23,454 nucleotides of DNA from Planctomycetota bacterium (GTDB taxonomy: Bacteria > Planctomycetota > UBA11346): contig JBBQSO010000083.1 of NCBI GenBank assembly GCA_038213805.1, positions 1 through 23,454 of the forward strand, in the 5' to 3' direction. Positions 1 to 18,798 of this stretch are shown here, in pieces. Position numbers and translations under genes: made by a program. Numbering within the stretch: the first letter of the stretch is position 1; every line of letters begins with the position of its first letter. The notes below the pieces were generated by a model that searched no databases, had not been told where the DNA came from, and saw only the letters and a program-made list of their open reading frames with translations.

Positions 1-125
1 AGCGCCGCGCCGGGATCACCCGGCACCGGCCGCCACTCCGGCACGTGGCTGGCGGCGCGCGCGTGCAGCTCGGCGACAAGGTCATCGAAGCGGCGGTCAT
101 CGAGGCTGGGGATCGGCAGGGGCAT
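1..125 (-). CDS. Baseplate J-like (Afp11/gp6-type) baseplate assembly protein, N-terminal fragment; continues beyond the left edge
   Basis: Not in the ORF track. Manual translation from ATG at 125 gives MPLPIPSLDDRRFDDLVAELHARAASHVPEWRPVPGDPGAA, matching the typical eCIS baseplate-J start (PxLDDRxFxDLV...PEW...DPG). It lies directly after the gp25 gene. Confidence 0.85.
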   Translation of the reverse strand, partial: MPLPIPSLDDRRFDDLVAELHARAASHVPEWRPVPGDPGAA

Positions 126-146: not shown

Positions 147-533
147 TCAGGGTGCGAGGTCGAGGGTCAGATCGAGAGAGCCGACGCTGGCGTCGGCGAG
201 CAGGCGGTAGCGCACCGCCACGCCGACGGTGGCCGGCGCGTCGGGCACCGCGCTGACCACCACGTCGTCGATGGCGATGCGCGGCTCGCCACGCGCCAGG
301 GCGCGGCGCACCTCGCCGGCGAGCAGCCCGCGCGTGGTCTCGTTGTTGGGCTGGTGGACGAAGCGCGTGATGCCGGCGCCGATCTCCGGGCGCATCAGGC
401 GCTCGCCCGGACGGGTCAGCAGCAGGTTGAGCAGCGCCGCGCGGATCGACGCGTCGCCGCTGGTCCAGGCGAGCGCCCCCGTGTCGTCCGGCCCGGCGAG
501 CGGCCAGCCTCTGGTGGGATCGGCGGCGCTCAT
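147..533 (-). CDS. GPW/gp25-family baseplate wedge / sheath-initiator protein (Afp9-like), 128 aa
   Basis: Contains GWP...SIRAALLNLLLTRPGERLMRPEIGAG...EPRI, the gp25 signature (LxTxPGERxxRPxFG...EPRI). ATG at 533 overlaps the upstream stop (ATGA). Confidence 0.92.
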   Translation of the reverse strand: MSAADPTRGWPLAGPDDTGALAWTSGDASIRAALLNLLLTRPGERLMRPEIGAGITRFVHQPNNETTRGLLAGEVRRALARGEPRIAIDDVVVSAVPDAPATVGVAVRYRLLADASVGSLDLTLDLAP

Positions 534-2176
534 GGCTTGCGCAGGCAGAACGACGGCAGTTTGAGGAACACCCACGGCAGCCAGAAGAAGATGATGTTGA
601 GCAGGCCGATGATGATGCTCAGCACGATCATCGCGCAGATGGTGATCGCGGGCAGGCTAAAGCTGAAGCTCCAGCACAGGCCCAGCCCGGCTCCGCCCTG
701 CTTGGAGACCTTGAGCCCGTCGGAAGAGACCGAGAGCAGCTTCTCCGCAAGGTCCTTGGGCGCGAGGAAGTGTGCGCCAAACAAGCCGCGCTTGAGGTCC
801 TTGAGCGACGGCAGCGCGACCACACGCGGTCGCCCAGCCTCGGGATCGTAGGGTGACGCGACGCGGAACGGCGCGCTCGGTCGCCCCCACGCGACGTGGG
901 TGCACGCCGCTCCTGCCCAGCGCACGAACGGCACCACGACGAAGCGCTCGTCGTCAGCGTGGCTGAAGCGCGGCAGCGGCGCGCCCCCGATGGTGGCGTC
1001 GATGGCGGACAGGTCGCGCACCAACAGCGCGCCGCGCAGCGCCGCGGCCTGGGCCTCGCCCACCGTGAGGGTCCAGTCGCGGATGCCGCCGCCGAGCTCC
1101 AGCCCCGGCAACACGCCAGGCGTGGCTTGGCCGAGCAGCACGTCCTGGCGGCCGAGCAGATCGTGCAACGCGCTTGCGCCGTCGCTGGCGAGCGGTGCGA
1201 GCTGGGCGCGCAGCCAATCCAGGACGCTCAGGACGCTGGTCTGGAGCATCGGGCGCAGCCACTCGTCCAGTCCGATCAGGTGGGTGGATACCAGCTGCCA
1301 GTCGGCGAGCGCGGACTCCAGTCCCGCGTTATCGCCGCCGGGGATGATCCCGACGCGGTGGCGATGCACGAGATCGGCGATCAGCTTGAAGAAATCCAGG
1401 GTCGGCACGCCGCTGGCGATCAGCGCACCGTCACCCTCAGCCCAGGTGCGCGCCGGCGTGCCGAACGGCCAGGCGCGGCTGCCGGACAGCTGCTGGCTGA
1501 GCCCGGCGAGCTGGTCCGCCGGGATGCTGCCGCCCGCACCGGGCCGCAGCACCGGCTTGGCCGCGCCCCCACCCACCGGCAGGTAGCCTGAAAGGATGGT
1601 GTGGGTGCGGCCGGCGGTCTCGGCGACCACCTGCGCCAGCAGCGGATGGGTCTGCTCGCCGGTGTAGGGTGGCGCGGGGGATGGCGGCACGCCGGTCGCG
1701 CGACGGTCGTGGTCGGGATCGAGATCGCCCCCCTCGCTCGGCTGCCAGCCCAGCGCCGCGCCCCGCACCGTCAGCCACTGGCTGGTCGTGCCATCGCGCT
1801 CGCAGCGCCGCACCACGAAGCCGGCCGAGCGGATGCGCTTCGGATCGAGCGCCGGCCGACCCGCGATGCCGCACACCGCCGCAACGCTGACCAGATAAAA
1901 TGTACCGCTGATGGGATGGCGCAGGCAGGTCGCGGCGATGCCCGCGAAGCGGTCCTCATGCTGCCAGGCGAAGTGCGCTCCGGGAGCAAGGTGACCCGTC
2001 GCGAATGCCTGGAGGTCGGCGTTGAAGGCGTCGACGAAGCCCGCATCGAGATAACGGTGCAGCGCGACCGCGGCGCTGCCGTCCTGGTAGAACGGCGCCT
2101 GCAGTTCCGCCGCGTGGCTGTGCGTGGCGCCGCGCGGCGCCGGCGTCAGCACCCGTGCGTCGGCCGCTGCCATCAT
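530..2176 (-). CDS. Uncharacterised eCIS-associated protein (~548 aa) with a hydrophobic C-terminal segment
   Basis: Long in-operon ORF with a normal protein-like composition, ATGA-coupled to gp25. The start is placed at MMAAADARV (2176/2173) to avoid overlapping the spike gene; the RBS is weak. The C-terminus LCWSFSFSLPAITICAMIVLSIIIGLLNIIFFWLPWVFL is strongly hydrophobic. Confidence 0.85.
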   Translation of the reverse strand: MMAAADARVLTPAPRGATHSHAAELQAPFYQDGSAAVALHRYLDAGFVDAFNADLQAFATGHLAPGAHFAWQHEDRFAGIAATCLRHPISGTFYLVSVAAVCGIAGRPALDPKRIRSAGFVVRRCERDGTTSQWLTVRGAALGWQPSEGGDLDPDHDRRATGVPPSPAPPYTGEQTHPLLAQVVAETAGRTHTILSGYLPVGGGAAKPVLRPGAGGSIPADQLAGLSQQLSGSRAWPFGTPARTWAEGDGALIASGVPTLDFFKLIADLVHRHRVGIIPGGDNAGLESALADWQLVSTHLIGLDEWLRPMLQTSVLSVLDWLRAQLAPLASDGASALHDLLGRQDVLLGQATPGVLPGLELGGGIRDWTLTVGEAQAAALRGALLVRDLSAIDATIGGAPLPRFSHADDERFVVVPFVRWAGAACTHVAWGRPSAPFRVASPYDPEAGRPRVVALPSLKDLKRGLFGAHFLAPKDLAEKLLSVSSDGLKVSKQGGAGLGLCWSFSFSLPAITICAMIVLSIIIGLLNIIFFWLPWVFLKLPSFCLRKP

Positions 2177-2217
2177 GCGCCGGCTGACCGGCCGACCCGG
2201 ACGCGTGGTATGCGGGA

Positions 2218-2859
2218 TCACCAGATGTTCCCGGCGCCGGGCGTGTACGATGACGAGATCACCGCATCGGCCATCAACGTGGTGCATTTCACCACGCCCG
2301 AGCAGTTCACCATCCCGGCGTCAATGGTGACCTGTCCGGCGCTGATCTTGACCTGCCCGGCCGTGACCTCGACGGAGGCGGAGGCCTGGACCTCGACCTT
2401 GGAGCTGGTCACCGTCACGGTGGTGCCCTGGACGTCGATCTTCACCATGCCGCCGCTGCCGTCGGTGACCTGCACCTGATTGCCCTGCGGCGTGGTGATC
2501 TTCAGCTGCGGACCGTCATCGTCGTCAAACAGCATGACCGTGCCCTTGGGCGTGGTGATGCAGTAGCGTGACTGCACCGGCGACTGGTCGCCGCCGGTCT
2601 TGGCCTTGCCCGTCCACAGCGCCCCCATCACCACCGGGAACTCCGGCGAGACGAAGCCCACCACCACCACCTCGTCCTTGCGCGGCAGCAGCTGCACGCC
2701 GTAGTCCGCGCCCGCGGAATGCGTGGCGCACGGCGCCCACAAGGTGATGCCGAGCGCCGGCACCTCGACCTGGACACGCCCGCGGTTCTCGCTGTCGGCG
2801 TTGTCGCGCACCAGGCCGACATGCAGGCCGGCGAAGGGGCTGGGTGGGGGCGCGGTCAT
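2218..2859 (-). CDS. Phage baseplate assembly protein V / Gp5-like central spike (OB-fold plus beta-helix), 213 aa
   Basis: GLVRDNADSENRGRVQVEVP...WAPCAT...AGADYGVQLLPRKDEVVVVGF...PVVMGALW is the Gp5/VgrG OB-fold motif. It is followed by beta-helical repeats (ITTPKG, ITTPQGN, VEVQAS). ATG at 2859 overlaps the hub gene stop (ATGA). Confidence 0.9.
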   Translation of the reverse strand: MTAPPPSPFAGLHVGLVRDNADSENRGRVQVEVPALGITLWAPCATHSAGADYGVQLLPRKDEVVVVGFVSPEFPVVMGALWTGKAKTGGDQSPVQSRYCITTPKGTVMLFDDDDGPQLKITTPQGNQVQVTDGSGGMVKIDVQGTTVTVTSSKVEVQASASVEVTAGQVKISAGQVTIDAGMVNCSGVVKCTTLMADAVISSSYTPGAGNIW

Positions 2860-3899
2860 GGCGTCCAGTCCGGGCGGGCCACGGCCAGCCAGCATTCGTA
2901 GCCGTGGTCGCGGTCGAAGCGGTGCACCGCCGCGACCACGCCGTAGGTGCCGGCCAGGCGCGGGCTGACGCCATCGAGGCGCACGCTCGCGCCCGGCGCC
3001 AGGCGCGGGTCGCCCTCGCACACCACGTCGCCGCGCAGGAAGGCGCCGGCCTGGCGCGCCAGTCCGCCGCGTGCGAGATCGCGCGCATGGCCGCTGGACA
3101 GCCCGACCGGCCAGGGCAGGCGGGCGCTCGCGCCCCAGCCGAGATCCTGCAGGTGGTCCGCCGCGCTGCGCCCGGCGGGCGCGGGCTGGAGCTGGTCGCA
3201 GTTCTCCTCGACGGCCTCGCCGCCGGGCAGGTTGTAGCCGGCGACGGTGACGTCGCGCTGCTGCCGTGCGAGATCGGCGGTGATGCGCACACGGTGACCG
3301 TTGTCGCGCGCGTCGATCACCACCGGCGTGTCCGCCTCGGCCGGCTTGGCGCGCAGGGTCGTGCCGCCAACCAGGCGCAGTGGGATGCCGAAGGGCCGCA
3401 CCAGGCGGCGCAGCAGGGCGAGATCGCTTTCGTCGAGCTGGTGCACCGTCAGCGCCGCGCTTGAGACCTGGACGTCGGCCTGCAGCCCGCCCGCCTGCGC
3501 GACGCTGCTGATGATGTCGTCGATGCTGGTCTCGGTGAAGACCTTGCTGCGCTGGTTGCGCGCCAAGCGGTGCAGCTTGTCCTCGGCCAGCAGCACCAGC
3601 TTGGGCGCGCCCTCGCCGTAGCGTTCCTCGATGGCGGTGACCTCGCCCCGGAACACCGTCACCGGCGTGGCGCCGAAGGCGACCTCGAGCGCGTCGCCCA
3701 GGGCGATGTCGAGCAAGGCGTAGGTGGAATCGCCGCCATCGCCGCTGCCCCAGTTGGCGAACTCGAGCTCGACGTGGTCGAGTCCTTCCGCGGGCTGGGT
3801 GATGGTCGCGGCGAGCAGCGCCGCGGTGAGACGCTGCTCCGCCTGGCCCTGACGCTTCAGGGTCGGCGCGGTCGCCACCAGGGCCTGGTCGGCGGGCAT
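2856..3899 (-). CDS. Phage late control D / gp27-like baseplate hub (N-terminal half of a split VgrG/Afp8), 347 aa
   Basis: Motifs VFRGEVTAIEERY, AEDKLHRL, QLDESDLALLRRL, GDPRLAPG, RLAGTYGVVAAVHRFD..GY are typical of GpD/VgrG hub domains. ATG at 3899 overlaps the upstream TGA (TGATG). Confidence 0.9.
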   Translation of the reverse strand: MPADQALVATAPTLKRQGQAEQRLTAALLAATITQPAEGLDHVELEFANWGSGDGGDSTYALLDIALGDALEVAFGATPVTVFRGEVTAIEERYGEGAPKLVLLAEDKLHRLARNQRSKVFTETSIDDIISSVAQAGGLQADVQVSSAALTVHQLDESDLALLRRLVRPFGIPLRLVGGTTLRAKPAEADTPVVIDARDNGHRVRITADLARQQRDVTVAGYNLPGGEAVEENCDQLQPAPAGRSAADHLQDLGWGASARLPWPVGLSSGHARDLARGGLARQAGAFLRGDVVCEGDPRLAPGASVRLDGVSPRLAGTYGVVAAVHRFDRDHGYECWLAVARPDWTP

Positions 3900-4077: not shown

Positions 4078-4875
4078 TCAGATTCCGAATGAGACGCCGA
4101 TGGCGATCCCTGCGCCCGCTGACGGCGGCGCGAAGGCACCAGGGATAGCGGTGCCGAGCGACGCCGAGGCGCCGACGCTGAAGCCGCCCGCTGAGACCTC
4201 GAGGCCGACATGGGCCACGCTCACGCCGAAGCCGCCGGGCGCGCGCGGGTTCTCGATGCCGCTCGCCAGCGCGCTGTCGCGCCAGTCCCGGGCCGAGGCG
4301 CGCGCGCGCTCCACCGACTTGGCGACCGGCTCGTCGGGTGCGCCAACGAAGGTCGGCGGCTGGCGCTGCGACGGCGGCGTGGCCGGCTTGGCGAAGGCGA
4401 ACTGGTACTGGTCCTCCTTGATCGAGAGCGCCACCGTCGAGCGCAGGGGCACGCCCTCCGGCGAGAAGAAGTCGAGAGTCTCCTGGTACGAGGCGATGAT
4501 GCCGTCGAACGCGAACGTGCCCCACTGGAAGCACAACCGCTTCGGAGTCTTCTCGTCCTTGCCCGCCTTCATGAAGGTGTCGGCGATCCTGGCGGTGCGC
4601 TTGCGCACGTCCTCGACCGCGCCCTCCTGCTCGGGCAGCGAGGTGTCGAAGATGAGCTCGACCGCGAGCGTCGAGGCGCGCTTCTCGATGTGCTGCGCAG
4701 CCGTGCTCTTCTTCTTCGATCCGGCGTCGGCCTTGATCTCGTTCTCGAGGCCGACCTTGAGCGTGGTCGGATTGAACTGCACGGTGATGCTGCTGCCGGT
4801 GTCGAGGTCGAGCGAGCCGTCCTGGTACGGGACCAGACGCGCCTTGACCAGATCGGGTGCGGTGGCGTCAGCCAT
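4078..4875 (-). CDS. CIS tube-initiator protein (Afp7/Pvc7-like) with a degenerate LysM-like C-terminal motif, 265 aa
   Basis: ITVQFNPTTL...LAVELIFDTS...DVRKRT...PKRLCFQWGTFAFDGIIASYQETLDFFSPEGVPLRSTVALSIKE is the CIS tube-initiator signature. WRDSALASGIENPR resembles the LysM end motif WRxIAxxNxIxNP. GGAG RBS. Confidence 0.9.
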   Translation of the reverse strand: MADATAPDLVKARLVPYQDGSLDLDTGSSITVQFNPTTLKVGLENEIKADAGSKKKSTAAQHIEKRASTLAVELIFDTSLPEQEGAVEDVRKRTARIADTFMKAGKDEKTPKRLCFQWGTFAFDGIIASYQETLDFFSPEGVPLRSTVALSIKEDQYQFAFAKPATPPSQRQPPTFVGAPDEPVAKSVERARASARDWRDSALASGIENPRAPGGFGVSVAHVGLEVSAGGFSVGASASLGTAIPGAFAPPSAGAGIAIGVSFGI

Positions 4876-4877
4876 GG

Positions 4878-5369
4878 TCAGGCTCCCTGCGCCGCGGCGC
4901 TGCGCGCGCCGCGCGCCAGGGTCAGGCCCTCGTGGGCGAGGTGCAGCTCCTCGACCGCCACCTGGGCGGCGGTGGCGTTCAGGTCGGCGCCCTTGAACTT
5001 GACCGGCAGGCAGCGGGTCAGGTTCCAGGTCAGCAGCACCTGCGCCTCGGGCGTGGTCAGTGCATCCATGACCTCGATACGGCCATCGAGACGGCTGCCG
5101 AAATTGGCCAGGCGCGCCACCGTATCGAACCACGTCCAGGCGTCGTTCAGTTCGGTCACGCCACGCTTCAGCACCACCGTCGCAAACGTCACCGGCCCTG
5201 CGCGCATGACCTCGCCCCAGGCGCGGCCGCCCTCGGCGATCTTCTTCGGTGCCATCGTCGCCTCCAGGCCGGTGACCTCGCTGAAGGCGCCGCCGCACAG
5301 CGTGGTGCCGCCCTGGATGAGGCTGACGCGGAAGCGGAAGGGGATGAAGAGCGTGGATTCAGCGGCCAT
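4878..5369 (-). CDS. T4 gp19-like tail tube protein, second paralog (Afp5-like), 163 aa
   Basis: FRFRV...GAFSEVTGLE...EGG...VVLKRGV...AWTWF...W...PVKFKGADLNA...VAVEELHLAHEGL is the Phage_T4_gp19 pattern. Confidence 0.95.
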   Translation of the reverse strand: MAAESTLFIPFRFRVSLIQGGTTLCGGAFSEVTGLEATMAPKKIAEGGRAWGEVMRAGPVTFATVVLKRGVTELNDAWTWFDTVARLANFGSRLDGRIEVMDALTTPEAQVLLTWNLTRCLPVKFKGADLNATAAQVAVEELHLAHEGLTLARGARSAAAQGA

Positions 5370-6882
5370 TGCGCTGCTCCAGGGCGAAGCGGCCGTCGCG
5401 GCCGATCAAGGCCAGGCGCACGAGATCGATGGGCAGGGCAGGACGCAGTTCGAGCTCGATGATAAGCTGACCGTCGCCGGCCGGGATGACCTGCACGCGG
5501 AAGGCCGGCGCGTCCGGGCCGCCGCTGGTCAGCGCACCGCGCTGCAGCAGGCGCTCGAGCTCCTCCTCGACCACCAGGCCCACCGCCGGATCGCGCGGAT
5601 CGGCGGTGAAGACCAGGCGTTCGCCGAGGCGCTCCAAGCGCCGGCGCAGCCAGCCGAGGAAACGTGCGACCTCAGAGGAGTACGCCAGCTCCGCGCTCGG
5701 CGAGCGCTCATCATCCAGCTCCAACCGCCCACCGGTCACCACCAGCACGCCGACGTGGTCGCCCTCGCGCAGCTCGGCGGCGGCGAGCACGTCGACGACT
5801 GGGAAGGGTCGCGCCAGGGTGGGCAGGGCGATGCCGGCGATCGAACGCCACGGCCCGAGCGCGCGCGCGCTGGCCGCGATCATCCCGGCGAGCAGCCCCG
5901 CGGAACTGACCAGGGCGCCCGCGGGATCGCGCAGGTAGGGCCACAACGGCTGCAGCACGCGCGCGGCGCGTGCGTCGGCGGCGAGCTGCGCGAGCGCGGC
6001 GCGCCCGACCGCGTCGAGGCCGGGCATGCCGCCATCGGCACCGGGCAGCGTCGCACCGGCAGCCGAGCGTTTGCGCGAGGCCAACGGCAGCGTGTAGAGC
6101 CACTGCACATCGGGACGGAACACGGCGAGGAAGCCGGCGATGCCGCGCAGCGCCGCGGCGGCTCCCGGTCCCGGCAGCGGCGGCATTGCCGAAGCGGCGC
6201 GCGCGAGCGGCGCGGGGGCGCCGCGGCACGGCAGGAACTCCGGCGCGGGCGGGGGCGGATCGTCGACATAGGGATCGGCGAGATCCGCCGGGATCAGTAG
6301 GCGTTCAAGATCGGGCGTGGCAAAGAGGCCGGCCTCCGGGATGACGACCAGCAGCTCGACGCCGCGCAGGCGCTCCGGCTCGCTCAACCGGCCTTGCACC
6401 ACCGCCGGATCCGCAGGCAGGAAGCCTTCCGTGCCTGCGTCCTCGCCGACCGCGATCACCCAGCACTGCTCGCCACCGGCCTGGAAGAAGTCGGCCACTG
6501 CGCGCGCCAGCCACGAGCCCGCACCGCACAGCGGCCGACCGTCCAACGGCGCCGCGCTGGCCGCCTGCGGAAACGCCGCGGTGAAGGCGGCGAGGCTGGT
6601 GAAGGCCAGTGGCAGATGCGTGAGGTCACCGTCACCGGCGAGCCGCGCGGCGAGCGCCTCGTCGGCCACCGGCAGCGCCGCCTCGCCACCCATCAGCCGG
6701 CGCAGCAACGCGGCGAACGCGGTGAAGCCGGCCGCGCCAAGGGCGTCGACAGCGGCTGCACCCAGTGCGCCCGCCACCTGCGGCCCCGGGCAGTGCCCGA
6801 CGAAGGCCGCCTCGAGCGCGGGCGCACTGCGCCGCACCGGGACGGGCGCAAGGTCGACGCGACGGTTGGCGAGAAGGATCAC
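5359..6882 (-). CDS. Divergent second contractile sheath paralog, ~507 aa
   Basis: GTG start at 6882 with GGGAG RBS. Recognisable but degenerate sheath motifs: LARAVADFFQAGGEQCWVIAV, LFATPDL, LWPYLRD, SAGLLAGMIA, RLVF, LLQRGAL, AFRVQV, GQLIIELELRPALP. Confidence 0.8.
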   Translation of the reverse strand: MILLANRRVDLAPVPVRRSAPALEAAFVGHCPGPQVAGALGAAAVDALGAAGFTAFAALLRRLMGGEAALPVADEALAARLAGDGDLTHLPLAFTSLAAFTAAFPQAASAAPLDGRPLCGAGSWLARAVADFFQAGGEQCWVIAVGEDAGTEGFLPADPAVVQGRLSEPERLRGVELLVVIPEAGLFATPDLERLLIPADLADPYVDDPPPPAPEFLPCRGAPAPLARAASAMPPLPGPGAAAALRGIAGFLAVFRPDVQWLYTLPLASRKRSAAGATLPGADGGMPGLDAVGRAALAQLAADARAARVLQPLWPYLRDPAGALVSSAGLLAGMIAASARALGPWRSIAGIALPTLARPFPVVDVLAAAELREGDHVGVLVVTGGRLELDDERSPSAELAYSSEVARFLGWLRRRLERLGERLVFTADPRDPAVGLVVEEELERLLQRGALTSGGPDAPAFRVQVIPAGDGQLIIELELRPALPIDLVRLALIGRDGRFALEQRNGR

Positions 6883-6904
6883 GGTGGGCTCCCGCTGCAG
6901 CCGC

Positions 6905-7366
6905 TCAGGCCTGCTCGACGGCTTCGACGGACAGCACCAGTTCCTCCATCGCCACGTCGCCACCACCCTTGGCGGTCAGCGTCGGGCCCGTCCACTTGAT
7001 CGGCATGGCGCGGCGCAGCGTCCACGACACCACGGTGGCGTCGCGCTTCTCGTTGCGCAGCTTGATCACGACGTCGCGCTTGGCGTTGGCGAGGTCGCCG
7101 GTGCGCAGCGTGTCGATCCATTCGTAGAGATTTTGCGCGCCGATCACTCCGCGCTTGAGGGTCACGTCGCCGGTCTTGAAGACCCCGGGGATCTTGCGCA
7201 CGTGGTTGACGTTGTCGTTGCCGTTGCGGTACTCGGCGACGGTGACCTCGGTATTGAGTCCCGAGACCTCGCTGAAGCCGGCCTGGAAGTCGCTGCCGGA
7301 CGGGCCGTCGCCGAGTTCGACGAGGAAGTTGAACGATGAGTACGGGGTGTCGCGCAGGGTGGGCAT
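6905..7366 (-). CDS. T4 gp19-like major tail tube protein (Afp1-like), 153 aa
   Basis: PYSSFNFLVE...AGFSEVSGL..EVTVAEYRNG...RKIPG...DVTLKRGVIG...LYEW...W.L.RAMPIKWTGPTLTA...VAMEELVL. AGGAG RBS. Confidence 0.97.
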   Translation of the reverse strand: MPTLRDTPYSSFNFLVELGDGPSGSDFQAGFSEVSGLNTEVTVAEYRNGNDNVNHVRKIPGVFKTGDVTLKRGVIGAQNLYEWIDTLRTGDLANAKRDVVIKLRNEKRDATVVSWTLRRAMPIKWTGPTLTAKGGGDVAMEELVLSVEAVEQA

Positions 7367-7415
7367 GGGGAACTCCTGAAGATGACTGGGTTATGAAGGA
7401 TGGGATGTGTGCGCC

Positions 7416-7462
7416 GCGAGTCTCGAGTCGTGAGCCTTCGCAGCTCGCGACTCGCGACTCGC
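7416..7462. repeat. Inverted repeat (20-bp arms, 2 mismatches, 7-nt loop) built from GACTCGC/GCGAGTC heptamers, between the sheath and tube genes
   Basis: gcgagtctcgagtcgtgagc (7416-7435), loop cttcgca, gctcgcgactcgcgactcgc (7443-7462). It lies 3 nt past the sheath stop codon. Confidence 0.85.
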
Positions 7463-7465
7463 AAA

Positions 7466-9679
7466 TCACGCATCGGCGGTGTACTGCCCGATGCGGAAGA
7501 CCACGAACTCCGCCGGCGTGAGCGGCGCCACGCCGACCAGGCAGACCAGGCGACCGTTGTCGATGTCGTTCTGGGTCATGGTGGTGCGGTCGCAGCGCAC
7601 GAAGTAGGCCGACTTGGGGTCAGCTCCAAGCAGGTGACCATTGCGCCACTCGCTGAACAGGAAGCCGTCGACGGCGGCGGCGACGTTGGCCCACAGGCCT
7701 TCGCCATTGGGCTCGAAAACCGCCCACTGCGTGCTCTTGTCGATCGACCGCTCAAGGAACAGGAAGTAGCGCCGCACGTTGAGGTACTTCCACTCGGGAT
7801 CGCCCGACAGGGTGCGCGCGCCCCACACCAGCCGGCCGCGCCCGGGGAAGCTGCGCAGGCAGTTGATGCCGTCGGGGTTGAGCAGTTCCTGCTGGAAGCG
7901 GTTGACCTCGACCTCGAAACCGAGCGCGCCGAAGACCACATCGTTGGCCGGCGCCTTGTGCACGCCACGCTGCACGTCGGTGCGCGCGTAGAGCCCGGCG
8001 ATGAAGCCGGACGGCGGCACGGTGATCTCCTCGCGCACGCCACTGGGATCGGCGATGCGCACCCACGGGTAGTAGAGGGCGAGCCGCGAGTCGCTGAAGT
8101 TCGAACGCCACGCCCGCACGTCGCCGATGGTCTGGCCGTGGCGGCTGTCGACGATGCCGACGCGGTAGCGCATCTTGTTGACGTGCTTCTGCACCTCGAG
8201 CACCACGCCCTGGTGGCCGACCAGGTCGAGCATCGCCGCCGCCGGGGTGAGCACGATCGCGATATCCTCGATGCTCTCAAAGGCGGTCAGGCCGGTGTCG
8301 CCCTTGGCCGAGTCGCTTTCGCCGGCGTAGTCGACGGGTACCGCCGGCGCACCGTCGGTGCCGCCGCTCAGGGCGATCAGGTAGCGCGGCCCGGCGACCG
8401 GGTCGATGGCGGTGGTCAGGGCCGGCGCGTCGAACAGCGTGCGCAGCGCCTCCAGCACCTGCGCGGTGGTCGGCGCCGCGAGATCGGCGCGCCGGACCAG
8501 TGCCGCGAGCGGGCTGGTCAGCGCGGCAGCGTGGCTGCCCGGGTGTTCCAGCAGGCGCGCCGCGAGCGCGTCGTCAGCGCCCGGATCGAGGGTGAGATTG
8601 GCGTAGGTCCACACCACCTCGCCGTCACGGTCGTCGACGTCGACCGCCGTGCCGGTGCCCAGGCGCCGGCGCACGTCCAGATCGAAGCTGCGTTGCACCA
8701 CCAGCGAGCCCACCTGCGCGCGCGCCGCAGCCAGCGCCGCGAGCGGCAGGGTGAGGTCGGCCGGCAGCAGCGGATTGAGCGCCTTGGGCACGGTCAGCAC
8801 ACTGCCCAAGGCATCGATCGTGCCGACCAGGCGGGTGAGACCACCGAGATCGCCGAGCACCGCGGTCAACCCCTGTGGCGCACCGCTCCCGGACAGGCGC
8901 AGTTCGGCCGGAGTCCCGTCGGTCAGCGCGCCACTGGTCGGCGGCTTGGCGTAGCCGCGGATGAAGCGGACCCCTGCGGGCAGGTTCGCCGCCGCGATGG
9001 TGGTGTTGGCGGCGAGGGCAACCGGCGCACCGGTATCGACGCGCGTCACCGCGACCCGCGCGGCATCGGGCGTATAGGTGGCCGCATCGGTGCGCACCGC
9101 GACCATCTGCAGGTTGAGCATATCGGTAGCCACCACACCGTTCGGCAGCGCGGACAGCGCAGACGCCGGCGCGATGCCGCTGATCAGCGTGGTGTCGCCG
9201 ATCTTCGGAGTGACGCTCTCGAAGCGCGCCAGGTTCTCGCTGTCGCGCCACACCAGCTCAAGCAGGTAGTTCCCGGCGCGCCCCGGGAAGCGCGCGCGGA
9301 AGGTCACGGTGGCGCCACCGGCGCCGGTGCCGCTGCGCGCTGCCAGGGCCGCGCTGGCGCCGGTGCCGTCGGCCGCGGCCTGGTTCACGCCGGCGAGGAC
9401 GCGCGAGACGAACAGCTGCTTGCCACCATTATCAAAAAAGGCGCGCGCGGCGATCGCGGTCTGGTTGGCGACCGGGCCGTCGCCGAAGTCAAGATCGGCG
9501 GCGTCGCCGTAGGTACGCTCGAACTCGGTGACGCTGGTCATCGGCTCGGGCGTGCCGCGCAGCGGGCCGGTGCGCGTCGTTCCGACGATGCCGGCGACGC
9601 TGGTGCCGACGCCTTCGATGGACTTGGCGCGGAAACTGGTCTCCTCGACGAAGACACCGGGGGCTAGGTATTCGGGCAT
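7466..9679 (-). CDS. Contractile tail sheath protein (Afp2/3-like; phage tail sheath family), 737 aa
   Basis: N-terminus MPEYLAPGVFVEE...IEGVGTSVAGIVG...AFFDNGGK. C-terminus ALYYPW...VPPSGFIAGLYARTDVQRGVHKAPAN...QELLNPDGINCLR.FPGRG..VWGARTLS.DPEWKYLNVRR...WAVFEPN...PAEFVVFRIGQ. GGAGG RBS before ATG 9679. Confidence 0.98.
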   Translation of the reverse strand: MPEYLAPGVFVEETSFRAKSIEGVGTSVAGIVGTTRTGPLRGTPEPMTSVTEFERTYGDAADLDFGDGPVANQTAIAARAFFDNGGKQLFVSRVLAGVNQAAADGTGASAALAARSGTGAGGATVTFRARFPGRAGNYLLELVWRDSENLARFESVTPKIGDTTLISGIAPASALSALPNGVVATDMLNLQMVAVRTDAATYTPDAARVAVTRVDTGAPVALAANTTIAAANLPAGVRFIRGYAKPPTSGALTDGTPAELRLSGSGAPQGLTAVLGDLGGLTRLVGTIDALGSVLTVPKALNPLLPADLTLPLAALAAARAQVGSLVVQRSFDLDVRRRLGTGTAVDVDDRDGEVVWTYANLTLDPGADDALAARLLEHPGSHAAALTSPLAALVRRADLAAPTTAQVLEALRTLFDAPALTTAIDPVAGPRYLIALSGGTDGAPAVPVDYAGESDSAKGDTGLTAFESIEDIAIVLTPAAAMLDLVGHQGVVLEVQKHVNKMRYRVGIVDSRHGQTIGDVRAWRSNFSDSRLALYYPWVRIADPSGVREEITVPPSGFIAGLYARTDVQRGVHKAPANDVVFGALGFEVEVNRFQQELLNPDGINCLRSFPGRGRLVWGARTLSGDPEWKYLNVRRYFLFLERSIDKSTQWAVFEPNGEGLWANVAAAVDGFLFSEWRNGHLLGADPKSAYFVRCDRTTMTQNDIDNGRLVCLVGVAPLTPAEFVVFRIGQYTADA

Positions 9680-9701
9680 GGATCCTCCGTGGACGCGGCG
9701 T

Positions 9702-10619
9702 TCAGGGTTGCTGGACGAGCAGGGTGGTGATGAGGGCGGTGTCGAGGCGCTGGCGGCGCCCCGGCGCGAAAGTGAATGGCAGGGTGCCGAGCCAGTGCAC
9801 AGCGCCGCCCGGCTGGCGACCGACCGGATCGCCGAGCATGCGCGCAGGCAGCGCATCGGGGTCAGGCGGCGCCGGTGGCGACCCACCAGACGGCTGCGCG
9901 CGTACGCTCAGGCGCGCCGCGTAGCCGGCCAGGCCGGACGGCGTGGGCGGGATGCGCCCCGGCGCGATGACCAGGTCGCCGTGCGCGTCAGCCATGGCGC
10001 GGAAGGTGCGCGTCAACCCGGGCGCGAGGTCGATATCAAGCTGCGCCAGCGCGTAGGCCGCGGGCGTCAAGGCCAGGCCCTGATCGTCGCCGAACCACAG
10101 ACGGGCGCTGAACGTACCGGCGGTGCCCCCCGGGGTCGCGGCCGGCGCGGGCCACACCGGCAGGGTGGTGAGCGCGCCGCGCATCAGGGTGCGCGCAAAG
10201 CGCCGCGGCAACCAACGCCCAGCGGGGTCGGCGATGATCCCGGCGATGATCAGCTGCGGCCGCGCGGGCAGTGCGCGCAGGCCATCGTCGGCCGCGCCCA
10301 TGACGCTCACCTGGTCGCCGCAATCGATCGGCGCGTCGGCGGCGCGCGCCACGATGGCCAACGTCCCCGCCGGCGCCGCCAGGTCGATGAGGTCGGCGCC
10401 GTCCCGGGCGTGCGGCAGGAAGGTGGTCGACGGCGCGCTCGACAGGAAGGCCAGCCGCCCCGCGCCGATCTGCACGCGCAGTCCACGCGGCACCGCGTCG
10501 AGCGCCAGGGTGAAGGCGCCGTCGGCGCGCAGCACCGGCGAGTCCGCAGCGGCACTGCCATCGACCAGGTCGAGGGCGCCCCACGCGTGCAGCACCTGGG
10601 TGGACAGGACTTGGCTCAT
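9702..10619 (-). CDS. Hypothetical eCIS protein, 305 aa, between the Pvc16-like gene and the sheath
   Basis: ATG at 10619 overlaps the upstream stop (ATGA) and the ORF fills the operon gap. The sequence looks beta-strand/Pro-rich. No family recognised. Confidence 0.8.
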   Translation of the reverse strand: MSQVLSTQVLHAWGALDLVDGSAAADSPVLRADGAFTLALDAVPRGLRVQIGAGRLAFLSSAPSTTFLPHARDGADLIDLAAPAGTLAIVARAADAPIDCGDQVSVMGAADDGLRALPARPQLIIAGIIADPAGRWLPRRFARTLMRGALTTLPVWPAPAATPGGTAGTFSARLWFGDDQGLALTPAAYALAQLDIDLAPGLTRTFRAMADAHGDLVIAPGRIPPTPSGLAGYAARLSVRAQPSGGSPPAPPDPDALPARMLGDPVGRQPGGAVHWLGTLPFTFAPGRRQRLDTALITTLLVQQP

Positions 10620-11212
10620 CGCGCCGCCACCGGAAAGACCCGCGTGCGCGCCAACCCGCCACCGTCGTCGCGGTCCATGACCACGCGCGCGGTGCGCACC
10701 ACCCAACAGGTGGTGAGCGTGTACTTCACCGGCAGCGCATCCCAGATGCGCATCAGGTCCTCGGTCGGTATCTCCTCCGGCGCGATCTGCACCTCCTCGT
10801 CATCGCCCCAGTCCGGATCGCTGGCGCCGACCAGGCTGCCGTCGAGCACCGGCGTGGTCGCGAGCTGCTGCATGGCCCAGGTATGCAGGCCGATCTCCGC
10901 GCCGACGCTGTTGCCCCACGACATCATCATCAGGTGCAGATTGAGCGGCAATACCGGGCGCGCGGCCTGCAAACTGCCGGGCGGCGGCCGCTGCGAGGCG
11001 TTGCGGCAGGTGGGATCGACCGAAATGCGGTGCAACCACAGCCCGAGCAGCGAGCCGGTGCCCGGATCCTTGATCGCCTTGAGGTCGGCGCTGGACAGCA
11101 GCTGCACCGCGCCCATCACCGGCGAAGCGAGGCCAAGCTCCGCCGGCAGGCGCGCCTTGAGCAGGCTCTCGATCGCGAGCAGAAGGCCGGGAACGCTGCG
11201 GTAACTGCCCAA
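10616..11212 (-). CDS. Pvc16/Afp16-like (DUF4255) cap / tail-terminator protein, 198 aa
   Basis: TTG start at 11212 with a perfect AAGGAGGT Shine-Dalgarno. Motifs LGLWLHRISVDPTCRN, PVLPLNLHLMM, AMQQLATTPVL, EDLMRIWDAL match DUF4255 (LxLYxVxxxxxxRN...PLxLxLxYL...lW.al). Confidence 0.9.
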   Translation of the reverse strand: MGSYRSVPGLLLAIESLLKARLPAELGLASPVMGAVQLLSSADLKAIKDPGTGSLLGLWLHRISVDPTCRNASQRPPPGSLQAARPVLPLNLHLMMMSWGNSVGAEIGLHTWAMQQLATTPVLDGSLVGASDPDWGDDEEVQIAPEEIPTEDLMRIWDALPVKYTLTTCWVVRTARVVMDRDDGGGLARTRVFPVAAR

Positions 11213-11627: not shown

Positions 11628-14600
11628 TCAGTCGCGACGGGCGCCGGGGCGCGCGACCATCAGCCGCGCGTAGGCCATCAGCAGCAACCCGAACATCAGC
11701 ACCGCCGCAAATGCTGTGCCGTGCCCACAACCACCGCCCCCACCGCCGCCGCCGCCAGTGCCACTGCTCACGACGCCGCCACCGCCACCGCCACCGCCAC
11801 CCGAGGCGTCAGGGGCGAGGACGACGCTGCCCGCCTCAGCGGTCAAAGCGTAGTTATCGGCATGCACGCCCGAAAGGCTGACGGTCAGCGGATAGGTTCC
11901 TGCTGGACTTGCAGATGTCGCGGTGGTGGTGAGCGCAGGCGTGCCGAGCAGCACGGCCGAGCCGTCCCCATCGACCGGCATCAGTCCAACGAAGTGGAAG
12001 CCCAACGGCGGAACAATGGCTCCGACCGTCGCGGTGACGGCGTCACCGGCAATGACCAGCGGTGCCTTGGCAATCACCAGCGTATCGCTCACCGAGCCGG
12101 TCACATCATTGGTGTCGACCGTTGCGACCACCGAATAGCTGCCGGCTGCCGTCGGAACCTGCGTCGCGCCATTGTAGGTGATGACCGGCGTCAGGCCGGG
12201 CTGCGCCACACTGGCGGTCGCAGCCTTGGGCGTGCCATCATAAGCCGCCGTCAGGGACCCGAGCGTCACCGTCACGACCGCCCTGGCGATCACCAGGGTC
12301 CCCGAGGCGGAGCCGGGATGGGCGGGATCGTTCACCGTCGCGTTGACGGCATAGGAACCTGCTTCGGTAGGTGCCGTTGCTGAGCCACTGTAGGTGATGT
12401 CCACCGCCAAACCGGATGGCGACGTCGTCGCCGACACGCTCTTGGGCGATCCGTCGTAGGTCGCAGCCAGTCCGGACAGGGTGATGGTCGATGGCGAGGT
12501 GGCGATGGTTTGTGTCGCATTGCCGCTGCCGATGTAGTTCGGATCCGTGACGGTGGCCACGACCGCGTGGTTGCCGATCGCCGAGGGCGGGCTGGCTGAT
12601 CCGTCATATGTGGTCGTGGTGGTCAGTCCGCTCGGTGCGGTGACGACGGTGACCTCATGCGGCTGCCCATCGAACGTCGCATTCAGGTCGGTGAAGCTCA
12701 CCGCAGCTGCGGCCCGGGCGATGGTCAGCGTGCCCGTCGCCGCGCTGCCGGTGAAATTCGGATCGGCAATCTGCACCGACACGGCGTAGGTGGCAGCATC
12801 CACAGGTACCGCGGAATCACCATTGTAGGTGACGGTGGTGGCGACGTTGGCCGGCGTGGTCGAGACCACCGCGGCATGACCATTTCCATCATAGGTAGTG
12901 CTCAGGCCCGAAAGGGCGATGGTTGCCGGCGCCGGAGCGATGGTCAGGGTGCCGGTGGCGCTGCCTGCGTAGTTGGGGCCGATCACTGTCGCCACCACGG
13001 CATAGGAGCCCACCGTCAGCGGCACCGTTGGCGACCCGCGGTAGGTCACCGTGGTCGCGAGGCCAGCCGGCGAGGTGGTGACCACCGCCGCGCGGGGTCC
13101 GCCATTGTAGGTCACCGAGAGTCCGGACAGGGACACCGTCGCTGGAGCGGGATTGATGACCAGGTTGGCCGTCCCGCTGCCCGTGTAATTGGCATCACTG
13201 ATGGTGACAATCACGGGATAGGTGGCGGCGTTGACCGGCAGTGGAGTTGAGCCGCTGTAGGTCACCGTCGTAGCAAGCCCGGTCGGCGAGGTGGTGAAGG
13301 ACGCCGCATGGCCGGAGCCATCGAAGGTCACGCTCTGGTTGAAGATCGTCACGCTCGCGGTCGCCTGGGCGATGACCAGCGTGCCGCTGACACTGCCGCT
13401 GTGGCTCGGATCAGTAACGGTCGCCACCACTGCGTGCGCACCCGCTGCCGTCGGCGCGGTCGCGGATCCGTCATACGTAATCGACGTACTCAAGCCAGGC
13501 GGGTTGGTGGTGGCGGTCACCGCGTGCGGCGAGCCATTGAACACCGCACTCAACCCCGACAGAGTGACCGTGGCGGTGGCGGTGGCTATGGTAAGCGTGC
13601 CGCTGGCTGACCCCTGATAATGAGTGTCGGTGATGGTCGACGCGACGGCGTAGGTTCCAGCCGCGCTCGGCGCGGTCGCGCTCCCCGCGTAGGTGGTGGT
13701 CAGTGCGAGGCTGGCCGGAATCGTGGTCGGGGAGATGGGCTTTGGGCTGCCATCGAAGGTGAAGGAGAGTTGGCCGAGTGCCACCGAACCCGTCGCCTTG
13801 GCGATGGTCAAGGTGGCTGATGCAGAACCCGTATAATTCGGATCGTTCGACGTCGCGGATACCGCATAAGAACCCGGCTCCACGGGCACACTGCCGCCGG
13901 CATAGGCGACTGACACCGCCACGCCCGCGGGATTGGTGGCGACACCCACCGGCTTGGCCGAACCGTCCCAGGTCGCGGAGAGGTTGGACAGCGTGATGCC
14001 GAGTGCGGCTGGCGCGATAGTCATGGTGCCGCTCGCGCTGCCGGAAAAGACCGGATCGTTCACGGTCGCAACCACTACATGAGGACCAGCATTGATCGGC
14101 AGCGTCGCTAACCCGTCATAGGTCACATCCACGGCCAAGCCGCTGGGCGAGGTCGTCACCGAAACCGCGTGCGCGGAGCCGGTGTAGGTCGTAGCGAGTC
14201 CACTCAGGGTCACTGTCGCCGGCGAGGTGTTCGGCGCGCGGGTGAACAGCCAGTCCCAGACCTTGCCGTTCTTCCAGGTGTTGACCCAGCCGGCCGTGTG
14301 GTCGGACTGCCAGAACATGGTGAAGACGCGGTTGTCATACGCGCCCGCGGCGGGCGGATCCTGCTCGGGCGGGGCCGCGCTGGGAACGGTGGTCGGGGCC
14401 GGCCAGGTCCAGGTTCCGGACCCTGGCTGATAATAGGCGGTCTCGACCAGGCCGACCGGGGTCCAGACGCTGGCATTTGCGGTCGAATCTGCGCCTGCGT
14501 AGGCTCCGGTCAGGGTCATCGACAGGCCGTTACCGGTGAGGCCACTGATGTTGTAGATGGCGTTGGTGGAATCCGAACTGAAGACGACGTTGGCGAAGGG

Positions 14601-15536: not shown

Positions 15537-15876
15537 GCGAACCTCGTGCTGGTGATGGCGTTGAGTTATCAGATGGTCTTCGATGCCGGCGCAAACATCC
15601 TGGGAAACAAGCCCTTGGCTCAATGGGCGTTTACCGAACCTTCCTTGGATCATCATGATGCCGGGAGAGACTATCTTCGTTTTTAGGTAGGCTACGAGGA
15701 CCCTAAGCGTCGATTGTGCCACTCATACAGCACTTGGTACCTGGAAAGGAGGCGAATTGCCCGCGAGATCATCCATTCCGTGCACGATTTCGACCGTGAC
15801 GGTCATGCATCCTGCACGGTGAGGACGAATGCACCTCGGGCCAGCCGGACGGATTGCCACTTTTACCAATGACGGC

Positions 15877-16392: not shown

Positions 16393-16469
16393 GCGCCTGA
16401 AGATAGCCCCGCCCTTCCGGATCGGCAAGCGCAAGCCACCATCCGGGCACGCAGATCGCGAACCGCTGC

Positions 16470-17651: not shown

Positions 17652-17844
17652 GGGGGCTTGGCGTATGGGGTGGCGATAGGCGCGCCAATGGCGAACTGCC
17701 CGTGTCGACGACAGCGCGGGGAACAGTCCCGCGGGGTGGCGGGAAAGTGACCGTGATGCCATGGTCGGAACACGCATGGGTGGGCGGGTGGCGACGACCA
17801 TCACGGCGGCGGTGGCCAGGGGGAAGAGCGGGAAGTGGAAGTAG

Positions 17845-18776: not shown

Positions 18777-18798
18777 TTCGATTAATAACTTTACCAGC
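18769..18798. terminator. Inverted repeat at the stop codon of the 164-aa gene; possible terminator
   Basis: gctggtaa-(14 nt)-ttaccagc, perfect 8-bp arms, in the gap between two convergent genes. Confidence 0.35.

Follow-up and report, generated by a model that had tools for sequence, protein, structure and literature searches.

In a Planctomycetota contractile injection system (CIS), a phage-tail-like machine, the spike and gp25 genes flank a minus-strand gene (530..2221) that encodes a 563-residue core protein without a known family. The gene lies in the window, i.e. the whole 23,454-nucleotide stretch of DNA analysed here, and all features described below lie on the same strand. Our best reading makes this protein a core subunit that defines a lineage of PAAR-less CIS. 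We tentatively propose, with somewhat less than even confidence, that this subunit is C-tail-anchored and docks the centre of the baseplate to the cytoplasmic membrane of the producer.

The gene and its operon

Downstream of the gene, the gp25/TssE-like baseplate wedge protein (147..533; PF04965, E 2.6e-20) is followed by the 5' end of the next gene (1..125), which leaves the window. The N-terminus of the latter matches 79 of 80 related loci; it is baseplate J/gp6-like in relatives, and its counterpart in locus L001 is a 733-aa Baseplate_J protein. Upstream, a gp5-like spike of the P2 V type (2218..2859, 213 aa; Phage_base_V, E 1.5e-17), homologous to the C-terminal halves of the VgrG/Cis8 chains 7aef, 7b5h and 9qgm, is encoded separately from the gp27-like hub (2856..3899; Phage_GPD domain match). 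The rest of the CIS operon spans 4078..11212, with domain matches to CIS_tube (4078-4875), tube (4878-5369 and 6905-7366), sheath (7466-9679) and a Pvc16_N cap (10616-11212), together with two unassigned genes (5359-6966 and 9702-10706). A 535-aa operon neighbour was considered as a second sheath and rejected, as it has no BLASTP similarity to the sheath.

The minus-strand ORF is open throughout 530..2287, and GC3 of the reading frame is 88%, compared with 72% and 53% at the first and second codon positions. An ATG at 2176 would yield 548 aa, while in the database cluster of this same protein the start is the GTG at 2221, giving 563 aa and a GTGA overlap with the spike stop. Because of this database entry, and because a homolog that is 89% identical (P0003) has no Met at the position of the ATG, we take the gene as 530-2221, with the stop codon at 530-532. 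The original prediction of a 548-aa gene between spike and gp25 therefore holds for the location and needs a small correction in length. The predicted ATGA coupling to gp25 is seen as an overlap of the stop with the gp25 start. A signal peptide had been predicted to be lacking, in agreement with the hydropathy profile, which shows no hydrophobic region at the N-terminus and in which the best 19-residue Kyte-Doolittle mean outside the C-terminus is 1.56.

Distribution and co-inheritance

The protein family comprises 784 clusters at 50% identity (E<=1e-3), and 363 of 390 pattern matches were confirmed as species genomes carrying it. A genome scan built on 23 closer members led to 80 fetched loci, which represent the closest relatives; the gene context of the distant members is known from a Rhodococcus plasmid alone. 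The spike gene lies directly upstream in 78 of the 80 loci, the other two ending at a contig edge, and a gp25 match adjoins the gene in all 80, beginning 6-168 nt past the end of the target alignment in 77 of them. The same order of spike, target and gp25 is found on the plasmid of Rhodococcus opacus. Wherever a fetched locus reaches far enough (78/80), the homolog thus has spike on one side and gp25 on the other, as had been anticipated. An apparent fusion of spike and target in locus L047 is an artefact, the ORF crossing a stretch of N beyond which the frame is wrong. As to whether homologs are common outside CIS loci, tblastn returned none from 50,697 phage records.

Over 70 loci, Mantel r is 0.90 for target and spike, 0.92 for target and gp25, and 0.91 for spike and gp25. 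Such co-inheritance makes a variable effector unlikely; a spike-loaded effector is one of the two roles raised in the original prediction. The 74 locus proteins placed in a tree represent four phyla, to which Rhodococcus adds Actinomycetota, and the hosts of the family include both diderms and monoderms. Since these share only the cytoplasmic membrane, we count the distribution in favour of docking to that membrane.

Assignment to eCIS subtype IIb

According to the available text of Chen et al. (2019, PMC6899500), IIb alone among the eCIS subtypes has no PAAR, and it is defined by a VgrG homolog split into gp27-like and gp5-like proteins, no afp10, a single afp11 and an afp12-like gene. The split is present in our window (Phage_GPD at 2856-3899 and Phage_base_V at 2218-2859), and in the relatives L001 and L081 a Tail_P2_I gene comes after the single Baseplate_J gene, a feature seen in these relatives and situated beyond this window. 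The supplement to that paper lists Azoarcus sp. KH32C and Methylomonas methanica MC09 as IIb (PMC6899500), and target homologs occur in both genera. The CIS lineage of the window thus matches subtype IIb, to which it is tied through genus context and locus anatomy.

The same text reports IIb-specific conserved genes that have no recognisable domain and are given no function, and we infer that the target is one of them; no gene between spike and gp25, membrane helix or function is named in that text (PMC6899500). The suggestion of an undescribed system now seems too strong, as the lineage is already on record as PAAR-less with unassigned conserved genes (PMC6899500). An imaged or tested IIb system was not found in the literature.

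Predicted fold

The AF2 model of the target (pLDDT 82.6, pTM 0.77; pLDDT above 90 for 307 residues) predicts an alpha/beta globular domain of roughly 480 residues, a flexible linker of low confidence (pLDDT below 50) and one helix, ending about 13 residues before the C-terminus. A second, independent model (pLDDT 87.1) has the same three parts, with the equivalent helix at 458-483; the helix comprises 25-26 residues in the two models. Whether the hydrophobic segment is buried in a soluble fold was a decisive point for the original prediction. In both models the linker parts the helix from the folded domain, which suggests that the helix is free of it, judging solely from the low pLDDT of the linker. 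A tape-measure role was ruled out, because the protein is globular (pTM 0.77) and not extended.

Pfam, NCBIfam and PHROG give no match for the target, and Pfam assigns no family to any of 65 family members, PAAR_motif and DotU included. A sequence profile search of the PDB returned nothing at E<=1 for the family, and Foldseek, run with two models against the PDB and one against BFVD, gave best E values of 0.02-0.09 with TM-scores <=0.11 among the top ten, which we take as noise. The ESM Atlas holds unnamed clusters only, and a search restricted to named entries yielded no usable match. A homolog search from one distant member gave 711 matches, in which all names given are 'hypothetical' or 'uncharacterized'. 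No paper on the protein was found in the literature outside subscription-only papers and bioRxiv supplements. The fold is accordingly predicted, on the basis of the models, to have no known relative.

The C-terminal hydrophobic helix

At the C-terminus, a basic tail had been predicted after a Cys- and Trp-containing hydrophobic segment of about 39 aa, and both are found. The segment comprises residues 515-553 (563..679; 39 aa, including Cys and Trp) and is the sole strongly hydrophobic stretch of the protein, with a 19-residue Kyte-Doolittle mean of 2.85. It contains the predicted single helix (residues 523-547, 581..655; AF2 DSSP) and precedes the short basic tail KLPSFCLRKP (533..562). With a single hydrophobic helix near the C-terminus and no signal peptide, the protein has the layout expected of the C-tail-anchored architectural class. 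The segment is common to 13/13 close homologs, and a 19-mer with a Kyte-Doolittle value of at least 2.0 occurs in 137/138 family members of at least 450 aa, ending within 30 residues of the C-terminus in 133 of these 137. The Rhodococcus homolog is an exception to this layout, with about 115-128 residues, acidic in character, beyond the helix.

The hydrophobic segment is also the best-conserved part of the protein, ranking top among 520 windows of 44 aa, with 3.07 bits per column compared with 1.16-2.18 elsewhere (65 members). Column counts show P524, A530, L534 and W547 to be invariant and T527, N542 and F545 nearly so; position 542 is polar (Asn/Asp/His), Pro, Cys and Trp are conserved on both flanks, and many helix positions vary only within Ile, Leu, Val, Phe and Met. 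A single conserved face of the helix is not borne out (p = 0.15 for the conservation moment at 100 degrees). As passive anchors tend to be poorly conserved, 'anchor' alone does not account for this helix.

The C-terminal tail of the family has a mean length of 13 aa and a net charge of +1.9, being positive in 52/65 members, and the 15 residues ahead of the hydrophobic core carry a net charge of -1.0 (65 members). By the positive-inside rule, this bias counts against a plain N-in/C-out anchor. Judging from sequence, it would fit a re-entrant insertion, or entry into a target membrane from outside.

Proposed role in membrane docking

Translation of the target is coupled to that of spike and gp25 through overlapping frames, and the protein carries no export signal. 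According to our proposal, its globular domain would be made in the cytoplasm and attach to the middle of the baseplate, contacting either the spike or the ring of gp25. Post-translationally, the C-terminal helix would enter the cytoplasmic membrane of the producer, as that of TssL does, and the machine would not float free but sit baseplate-first at this membrane, in the manner of T6SS, tCIS and the haloarchaeal CIS. Helices from several copies may pack together or with another conserved partner into an ordered membrane assembly, located where the machine fires, that goes beyond a passive lipid anchor. Such packing is suggested by the near-complete conservation of the helix, in which position 542 is polar and Pro, Trp and Cys lie on the flanks.

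By analogy, a precedent for the anchor reading may be seen in the unrelated membrane proteins Cis13, CisA, Hbor_38620 and SalCis19, which tether other CIS lineages. The acidic tail of about 115 residues after the Rhodococcus helix is hard to square with delivery into a target membrane. On the other side, divergent homologs of the tail-fibre genes afp12/afp13 are reported in IIb in the available text of Chen et al. (PMC6899500), which hints at a released particle and speaks against docking.

The spike tail, the missing PAAR and alternative roles

The spike closes with 28 residues, ending SYTPGAGNIW (2221..2304), that are kept wherever the target family occurs: in Rhodococcus and in every one of the 76 spikes next to target homologs that could be read. 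No PDB chain shares this tail, solved spikes included, and it is absent from two T6SSiii spikes, both of which are without the target. No PAAR was found among 148 ORFs of 10 related loci, among 13 genes of the Rhodococcus locus or among the CIS genes of the window, outside which the operon downstream of gp25 lies. All 10 surveyed loci are thus PAAR-less, as the original prediction supposed. Its remark that a PAAR gene often sits at the target position is imprecise, since in the Afp gene numbering (Table 1 of PMC6899500) the PAAR gene afp10 comes after the gp25 gene afp9.

Adjacency to the spike, the lineage-invariant spike tail and the missing PAAR fit a role at the spike tip at least as well as an anchor. 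One to three copies of the protein would sit on the spike tail YTPGAGNIW, with the hydrophobic C-terminus shielded within the baseplate until contraction drives it into the target-cell membrane as a pore, conduit or penetration aid; we regard this as possible but doubtful. The target gene directly follows the spike gene and overlaps its stop, the conserved tail accompanies the target and not the solved spikes or the two T6SSiii spikes, and none of the 148 ORFs or the 13 Rhodococcus genes supplies a PAAR in what the available text calls the sole PAAR-less subtype, for which a tail-fibre-like afp13 is also listed (PMC6899500). The positive C-tail and negative N-flank would suit entry from outside into an energised membrane, and conservation all around the helix, together with the conserved Asn, would suit a helix bundle. 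However, a 60-kDa globular protein at the tip would blunt the spike, a chaperone for the hydrophobic helix is not evident, and the approximately 115 acidic residues after the Rhodococcus helix are unlikely to cross a target membrane. Foldseek reveals no similarity to PAAR or any tip protein, and the conserved spike tail could itself be a built-in apex, as phage P2 is described with spike and tip fused in the available text of PMC12407873.

A membrane-resident assembly platform or firing trigger is rather improbable. Like CisA, such a protein would touch the baseplate transiently, for hub nucleation or contraction, and would not be a stable part of the particle; CisA is described as needed for firing yet not resolved in the purified particle (PMC12237407, available text). 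The tail-anchor-like layout and the strict operon linkage to hub and wedge genes are in line with this role, but coupling to two structural genes and the tight distance correlations suggest a stoichiometric structural subunit, and the architecture described for CisA (PMC12237407) differs from that of the target.

We consider it very unlikely that the protein never enters lipid and that its helix is buried in the assembled baseplate, e.g. in a bundle around the spike. Conservation of the whole helix (moment p = 0.15) is what full protein burial would produce, and the conserved Pro, Cys and Trp on both flanks point the same way. Nevertheless, lipid-embedded helices typically show such a hydropathy (2.85 over 19 residues, in a run of about 39 apolar residues), variation confined to Ile, Leu, Val, Phe and Met resembles that of lipid-facing positions, and AF2 leaves the helix unpacked from the globular domain (linker pLDDT below 50).

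Holins are small membrane proteins of phage lysis cassettes. A holin-like lysis or release factor, which would make the producer membrane permeable and let the particles out, is improbable in the extreme: one very hydrophobic helix and a basic tail at the C-terminus would suit it, and eCIS such as MAC are described as freed by cell lysis (PMC6899500, available text), but the protein has 563 aa with a large folded domain, its gene lies in the baseplate module and not in a lysis cassette, it is co-inherited with spike and gp25, and it has neither a PHROG match nor a phage homolog.

Significance

How a CIS contacts a membrane decides its biology, as a released toxin particle, a contact-dependent weapon or an intracellular death device. 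Subtype IIb is common in environmental bacteria, and the target is its most distinctive part: it is always present, at the spike-wedge junction of a PAAR-less system, with a fold that has no solved relative and a helix conserved from Proteobacteria to Actinobacteria. The protein is a testable entry point to how an entire CIS class works, in cultivable, non-pathogenic hosts such as Aromatoleum toluclasticum ATCC 700605, Thauera butanivorans NBRC 103042, Methylomonas methanica MC09 and strains of Marinobacter or Hahella, and a candidate new module for docking to or piercing membranes in engineered injection systems.

A further reading, which we hold to be unlikely, would define a so far undescribed IIb mode in which the new-fold, tail-anchored protein sits on the tip of the PAAR-less spike, and a bundle of its helices in the producer membrane acts as both anchor and firing gate. 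If true, the bundle would replace TssJLM-type complexes, and the IIb 'eCIS' would be contact-dependent, membrane-docked weapons or cell-death devices across Pseudomonadota, Thermodesulfobacteriota, Planctomycetota, Acidobacteriota and Actinomycetota.

Comparison with known systems

TssL of the T6SS has a cytoplasmic domain and a single C-terminal membrane helix; it is C-tail-anchored and links the baseplate to the inner membrane. The likeness to the target lies in the cytoplasmic domain followed by one C-terminal membrane helix. The differences are that the target has no match to the DotU Pfam or TssL NCBIfam families, DotU being absent in 65/65 members, that its soluble domain is three times that of TssL, and that no TssM or TssJ partners are seen in the window.

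The PAAR and gp5.4 spike-tip proteins resemble the target in that their genes lie beside those of the spike and wedge, and the CIS lineage without these tip proteins is precisely the one in which the target is found. In contrast to PAAR, the target bears a membrane helix and has no PAAR_motif (PF05488), and Foldseek matches it to no PDB chain. A PAAR domain is about one fifth of the target in size.

Among CIS anchors, Cis13 of the Anabaena thylakoid-anchored CIS is bound to the baseplate and anchors the CIS through a C-terminal TM helix, the deletion of which frees the particles, according to the available text of PMC8894136. Unlike the target, Cis13 is described there as small, trimeric and tail-fibre-like, with TM at aa 122-154 and a position at the baseplate periphery; its gene follows cis12 and is restricted to filamentous cyanobacteria (PMC8894136). 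The target profile has no match among PDB sequences, the tCIS entry 7b5h included.

CisA (SCO4242) of the Streptomyces cytoplasmic CIS is described as a single-pass membrane protein that is encoded with a lineage II CIS, belongs to subtype IId and is needed for membrane contact as well as firing; its cytoplasmic N-terminus (1-285) is disordered, its TM lies mid-protein and its periplasmic domain is folded (PMC12237407, available text). The target is set apart from this description by its folded N-terminal domain and the mere 13 or so residues past its helix.

Hbor_38620 of the haloarchaeal T6SS and SalCis19 of the Salmonella salamae CIS are, in the available descriptions, lineage-specific and proposed baseplate tethers, like the target. 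Hbor_38620 differs in having six TM helices and a 150-aa cytoplasmic domain, SalCis19 in having a Sec signal, three TM helices and a periplasmic hydrolase, and both genes lie outside the spike-gp25 junction. As far as these descriptions go, the layout of the target is distinct from those of Cis13, CisA, Hbor_38620 and SalCis19, in agreement with the new type of anchor envisaged in the original prediction. Each CIS lineage studied so far has a different, unrelated membrane-contact protein.

Results

A contractile-injection-system (CIS) operon fills the first 11.2 kb of the window on the minus strand, where GC is ~72% across the first 12 kb against 66% for the window overall. Pfam matches give the gene order: a Pvc16_N cap (10616-11212), a 334-aa ORF (9702-10706), sheath (7466-9679), a gp19 tube (6905-7366), a 535-aa ORF (5359-6966), a second gp19 tube (4878-5369), a CIS_tube protein (4078-4875), a gp27-like GPD hub (2856-3899), a gp5-like spike (Phage_base_V; 2218-2859), the target gene (530-2221), which has no Pfam match, gp25 (147-533), and the start of a further gene that runs off the window (1-125). 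The 334-aa ORF matches nothing in Pfam, NCBIfam or PHROG and, as listed, overlaps the 3' end of the cap gene.

Upstream of the operon, three genes occupy 11628-17804 on the same strand. The first encodes a 1364-aa protein with ten MBG_3 repeats and a weak carboxylesterase match, in which a Gly-rich stretch precedes a hydrophobic C-terminus; the others encode an OmpA-family protein (15877-16485) and a glucuronyl-esterase-like protein (16470-17804). GC then drops from ~72% to 45-62% at 18001-23454, a region that may be foreign DNA beside the CIS island. It contains a 1309-aa ORF (19160-23089, minus strand) whose translation is rich in hydrophobic stretches and which neither Pfam nor PHROG matches.

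Third-codon-position GC in the target frame is 88%. The original prediction described a gene of 548 aa; the ATG at 2176 does give that length, but we take the GTG at 2221 (563 aa) as the start because P0002, the 563-aa database copy of the window's own protein, begins there, and the 89%-identical homolog P0003 has no Met at the position of the ATG. The GTG overlaps the stop codon of the spike (GTGA), and the ATGA coupling to gp25 is seen in the window sequence, as had been proposed. In a 19-residue Kyte-Doolittle scan the sole segment above 1.6 is C-terminal (maximum 2.85); the maximum elsewhere is only 1.56, and the protein therefore has no signal peptide. Both this and the hydrophobic segment at nt 563-679 (residues 515-553), followed by the tail KLPSFCLRKP, agree with the original description.

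A word-indexed search with the window protein found 13 relatives. An exhaustive search of 1.84 billion cluster representatives returned 784 at E<=1e-3; 382 of these reach E<=1e-10 and 49 E<=1e-30. Most of the distant relatives align strongly just over query residues ~400-541. A second word search, from the distant member P0079, gave 711 proteins, all named 'hypothetical' or 'uncharacterized' where the source gives a name, and none with a precomputed Pfam domain. Pfam matched neither the window protein nor any of 65 diverse members; NCBIfam had no match for the target, PHROGs none for four family members, and a family profile run against PDB sequences none at E<=1, while the ESM Atlas contained unnamed clusters only and nothing among the named ones. 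The target belongs to a large, unnamed, CIS-specific family.

Searching one-genome-per-species contigs with a pattern taken from the hydrophobic segment gave 390 matches, 363 of which encode a relative. The best 80 of these loci were taken with 6-kb flanks, and their six-frame ORFs were searched with the window's own proteins. The placement after the spike recurs: homologs directly follow it in 78 of the best 80 loci, and gp25 is matched in all 80. Matches were also found for the baseplate J N-terminus in 79 loci, spike in 78, GPD hub in 75, CIS_tube in 69, the tube proteins in 68 each and sheath in 59; the 334-aa ORF and Pvc16_N, whose genes lie outside the 6-kb flank, had none. The two loci lacking a spike match (L022 and L079) begin within the target gene. 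In the other 78, the gap between the end of the spike alignment and the target alignment is -28 to +191 nt, and in 77/80 the gp25 match starts 6-168 nt past its end; in the remaining L004, L012 and L064 the best gp25 match overlaps the 3' part of the target. The full order sheath-tube-tube-unknown-CIS_tube-GPD-spike-target-gp25-J is present in 56 of the best 80; the others are mostly truncated versions of it, and in four of the loci two adjacent matches are swapped. A spike-target fusion ORF in one locus (L047, 5323-7650) was rejected, since it arises artificially from a stretch of N within the spike gene on that MAG contig.

The 535-aa ORF between the two tube genes is kept in 67/80 related loci and is a second lineage-conserved gene of unassigned function. 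It has no match in Pfam or PHROG, and BLASTP similarity to the sheath was not found. As listed, it begins within the upstream tube gene, which makes a start farther downstream probable. Past gp25, the related locus L001 encodes Baseplate_J (733 aa) and Tail_P2_I (824 aa) proteins. A conserved gene of ~300 aa lies 3' of the P2_I-like baseplate gene in 61 loci (e.g. L039, 12588-13493; L063, 12561-13487); it has no Pfam match and is of fixed length, unlike a variable tail fibre.

By tblastn, no homolog was found in 50,697 phage records, and one was found among 72,556 plasmids. This Rhodococcus opacus plasmid (NZ_CP095404.2) carries a 552-aa 'hypothetical protein' between 'baseplate assembly protein V' and 'GPW/gp25', followed by baseplate J, a P2_I-like gene, an unknown and an AAA ATPase. 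Pairwise distances across 70 loci correlate closely for target/spike (r 0.90), target/gp25 (r 0.92) and spike/gp25 (0.91; Mantel p 0.001 each), with the target evolving faster (mean p-distance 0.59 vs 0.45 for spike and 0.48 for gp25). Syntenic position, matching distances and the lack of a homolog in those phage records together mark the target as a vertically co-inherited core gene of its CIS lineage rather than swappable cargo or a phage gene. In a quick maximum-likelihood tree of 75 proteins, which places the window protein among homologs from Pseudomonadota (64), Thermodesulfobacteriota (5), Planctomycetota (3) and Acidobacteriota (2), it clusters on long branches with the three MAG proteins of Planctomycetota (SH-aLRT 98). 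Despite this grouping, Aromatoleum provides its best identity (42%). The window may come from a planctomycete-like bacterium of high GC.

Solved VgrG-like spikes match the 213-aa spike in their C-terminal halves, but only as far as its residue ~180-187. The last ~28 residues of the window's spike (2221-2304, minus strand), which close with SYTPGAGNIW, hardly vary across all 76 spikes that could be read next to target homologs, and Y205, P207, G208, G210, N211 and W213 are invariant in a 42-spike alignment. The Rhodococcus spike ends likewise; no PDB chain matches this tail. Two plasmid-borne Bacteroidota T6SSiii spikes, a small sample, have neither the tail nor the target gene. The tail might dock the target; alternatively, it could itself form the apex, much as in phage P2, whose spike and tip are described as fused (PMC12407873).

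An AlphaFold2 model of the window protein (65 sequences; mean pLDDT 82.6, pTM 0.77) has a confident alpha/beta globular region at residues ~30-500 and one helix at 523-547, with pLDDT <50 at 1-28, 500-524 and 554-563. An independent model of the distant P0079 subfamily (74 sequences; pLDDT 87.1, pTM 0.79) has a matching layout, with a helix at 458-483 after a low-confidence linker. Foldseek found nothing credible in the PDB (best E 0.089 and 0.022 for the two models) or BFVD (best E 0.021), and TM-scores were <=0.11 within the top ten of every search. The PDB copy ran to April 2026 and covers, among other CIS entries, 7aef, 7b5h and 9qgm, which the spike matches in sequence.

A 19-mer with KD>=2.0 is present in 137/138 family members of >=450 aa and ends <=30 residues from the C-terminus in 133 of the 137; the exceptions include P0060, which has no such 19-mer, and the Rhodococcus protein. 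The latter (L081, 13104-14762) keeps the conserved helix, adds ~115-128 mostly acidic residues after it, and is the only member seen with the helix far from the C-terminus. Across 65 members the hydrophobic region (513-556) is the best-conserved part of the protein, at 3.07 bits per column, compared with 2.18 for the preceding C-terminal module, 1.92 for the N-terminal domain and 1.16 for the middle; the top five of 520 44-residue windows all begin at 513-517. P524, A530, L534 and W547 are invariant and F521, T527, F545 and P556 nearly so; at position 542, 51 members have Asn, 9 Asp and 5 His. Cys is kept at 519, 529 and 554 in 54-57/65 members, the window protein having C529 only. Restriction of conservation to one helix face was not supported (p 0.15). 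Past the hydrophobic core, the tail has a mean length of 13 residues and a mean net charge of +1.9 (net positive in 52/65), and the 15 residues ahead of the core average -1.0.

Discussion

According to Chen et al. 2019 (PMC6899500), IIb is the sole eCIS subtype without afp10 (PAAR); its VgrG homolog is divided between gp27 and gp5 genes, it has one afp11, and its afp12/afp13 are divergent. The window has such a split spike. In 10 related loci, none of 148 plus-strand ORFs of 70-220 aa matched PAAR_motif, their Pfam matches being limited to gp19, sheath, base_V, gp25 and a beta-helix domain of the spike; none of the 13 genes of the Rhodococcus locus matched it either. Azoarcus sp. KH32C and Methylomonas methanica MC09 are labelled IIb in the supplement, Methylomonas as the IIb example, and both genera have target homologs. 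From the split spike, the PAAR-less relatives and these labelled genera, we assign the locus to subtype IIb. The target gene is probably one of the unnamed specific genes of IIb.

The IIb lineage, its PAAR-less state and the existence of such unnamed genes are already in print. A literature search, with subscription journals and preprint supplements outside its scope, found neither the target protein, its membrane helix nor any IIb experiment. The locus adds to this record a CIS whose core subunit, probably membrane-associated, is both new and unrelated. Its interest is that the target makes the mode of action of the whole IIb subtype testable.

The target is an operon-coupled core gene without an export signal or phage homologs, in a PAAR-less system, and its product comprises a predicted globular domain, a linker and one very hydrophobic, sequence-specific helix near the C-terminus. 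We tentatively favor a C-tail-anchored subunit, whose cytoplasmic domain would bind the baseplate center and whose helices would embed in the producer's cytoplasmic membrane, so that the machine would be membrane-docked. Since the helix is highly conserved, the helices would presumably pack with each other or with a partner. The tail-anchor architecture, the occurrence of the family in both monoderm and diderm hosts and the acidic extension of the Rhodococcus homolog speak for such an anchor. However, the charge bias, the adjoining spike with its invariant tail, and the afp13-like genes reported in IIb (PMC6899500) speak against it. A spike-tip subunit inserting into a target membrane is conceivable, though we consider it rather unlikely, and a transient assembly platform or firing trigger is doubtful. 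That the helix is buried in protein seems improbable, and a lysis factor highly improbable.

Membrane anchoring also has precedent in four unrelated CIS tethers. Cis13 is described as having a C-terminal TM helix (PMC8894136), and CisA as having a TM between a disordered N-terminus and a periplasmic domain (PMC12237407). Hbor_38620 reportedly has six TM helices, and SalCis19 reportedly combines a hydrolase with a Sec signal and three TM helices.
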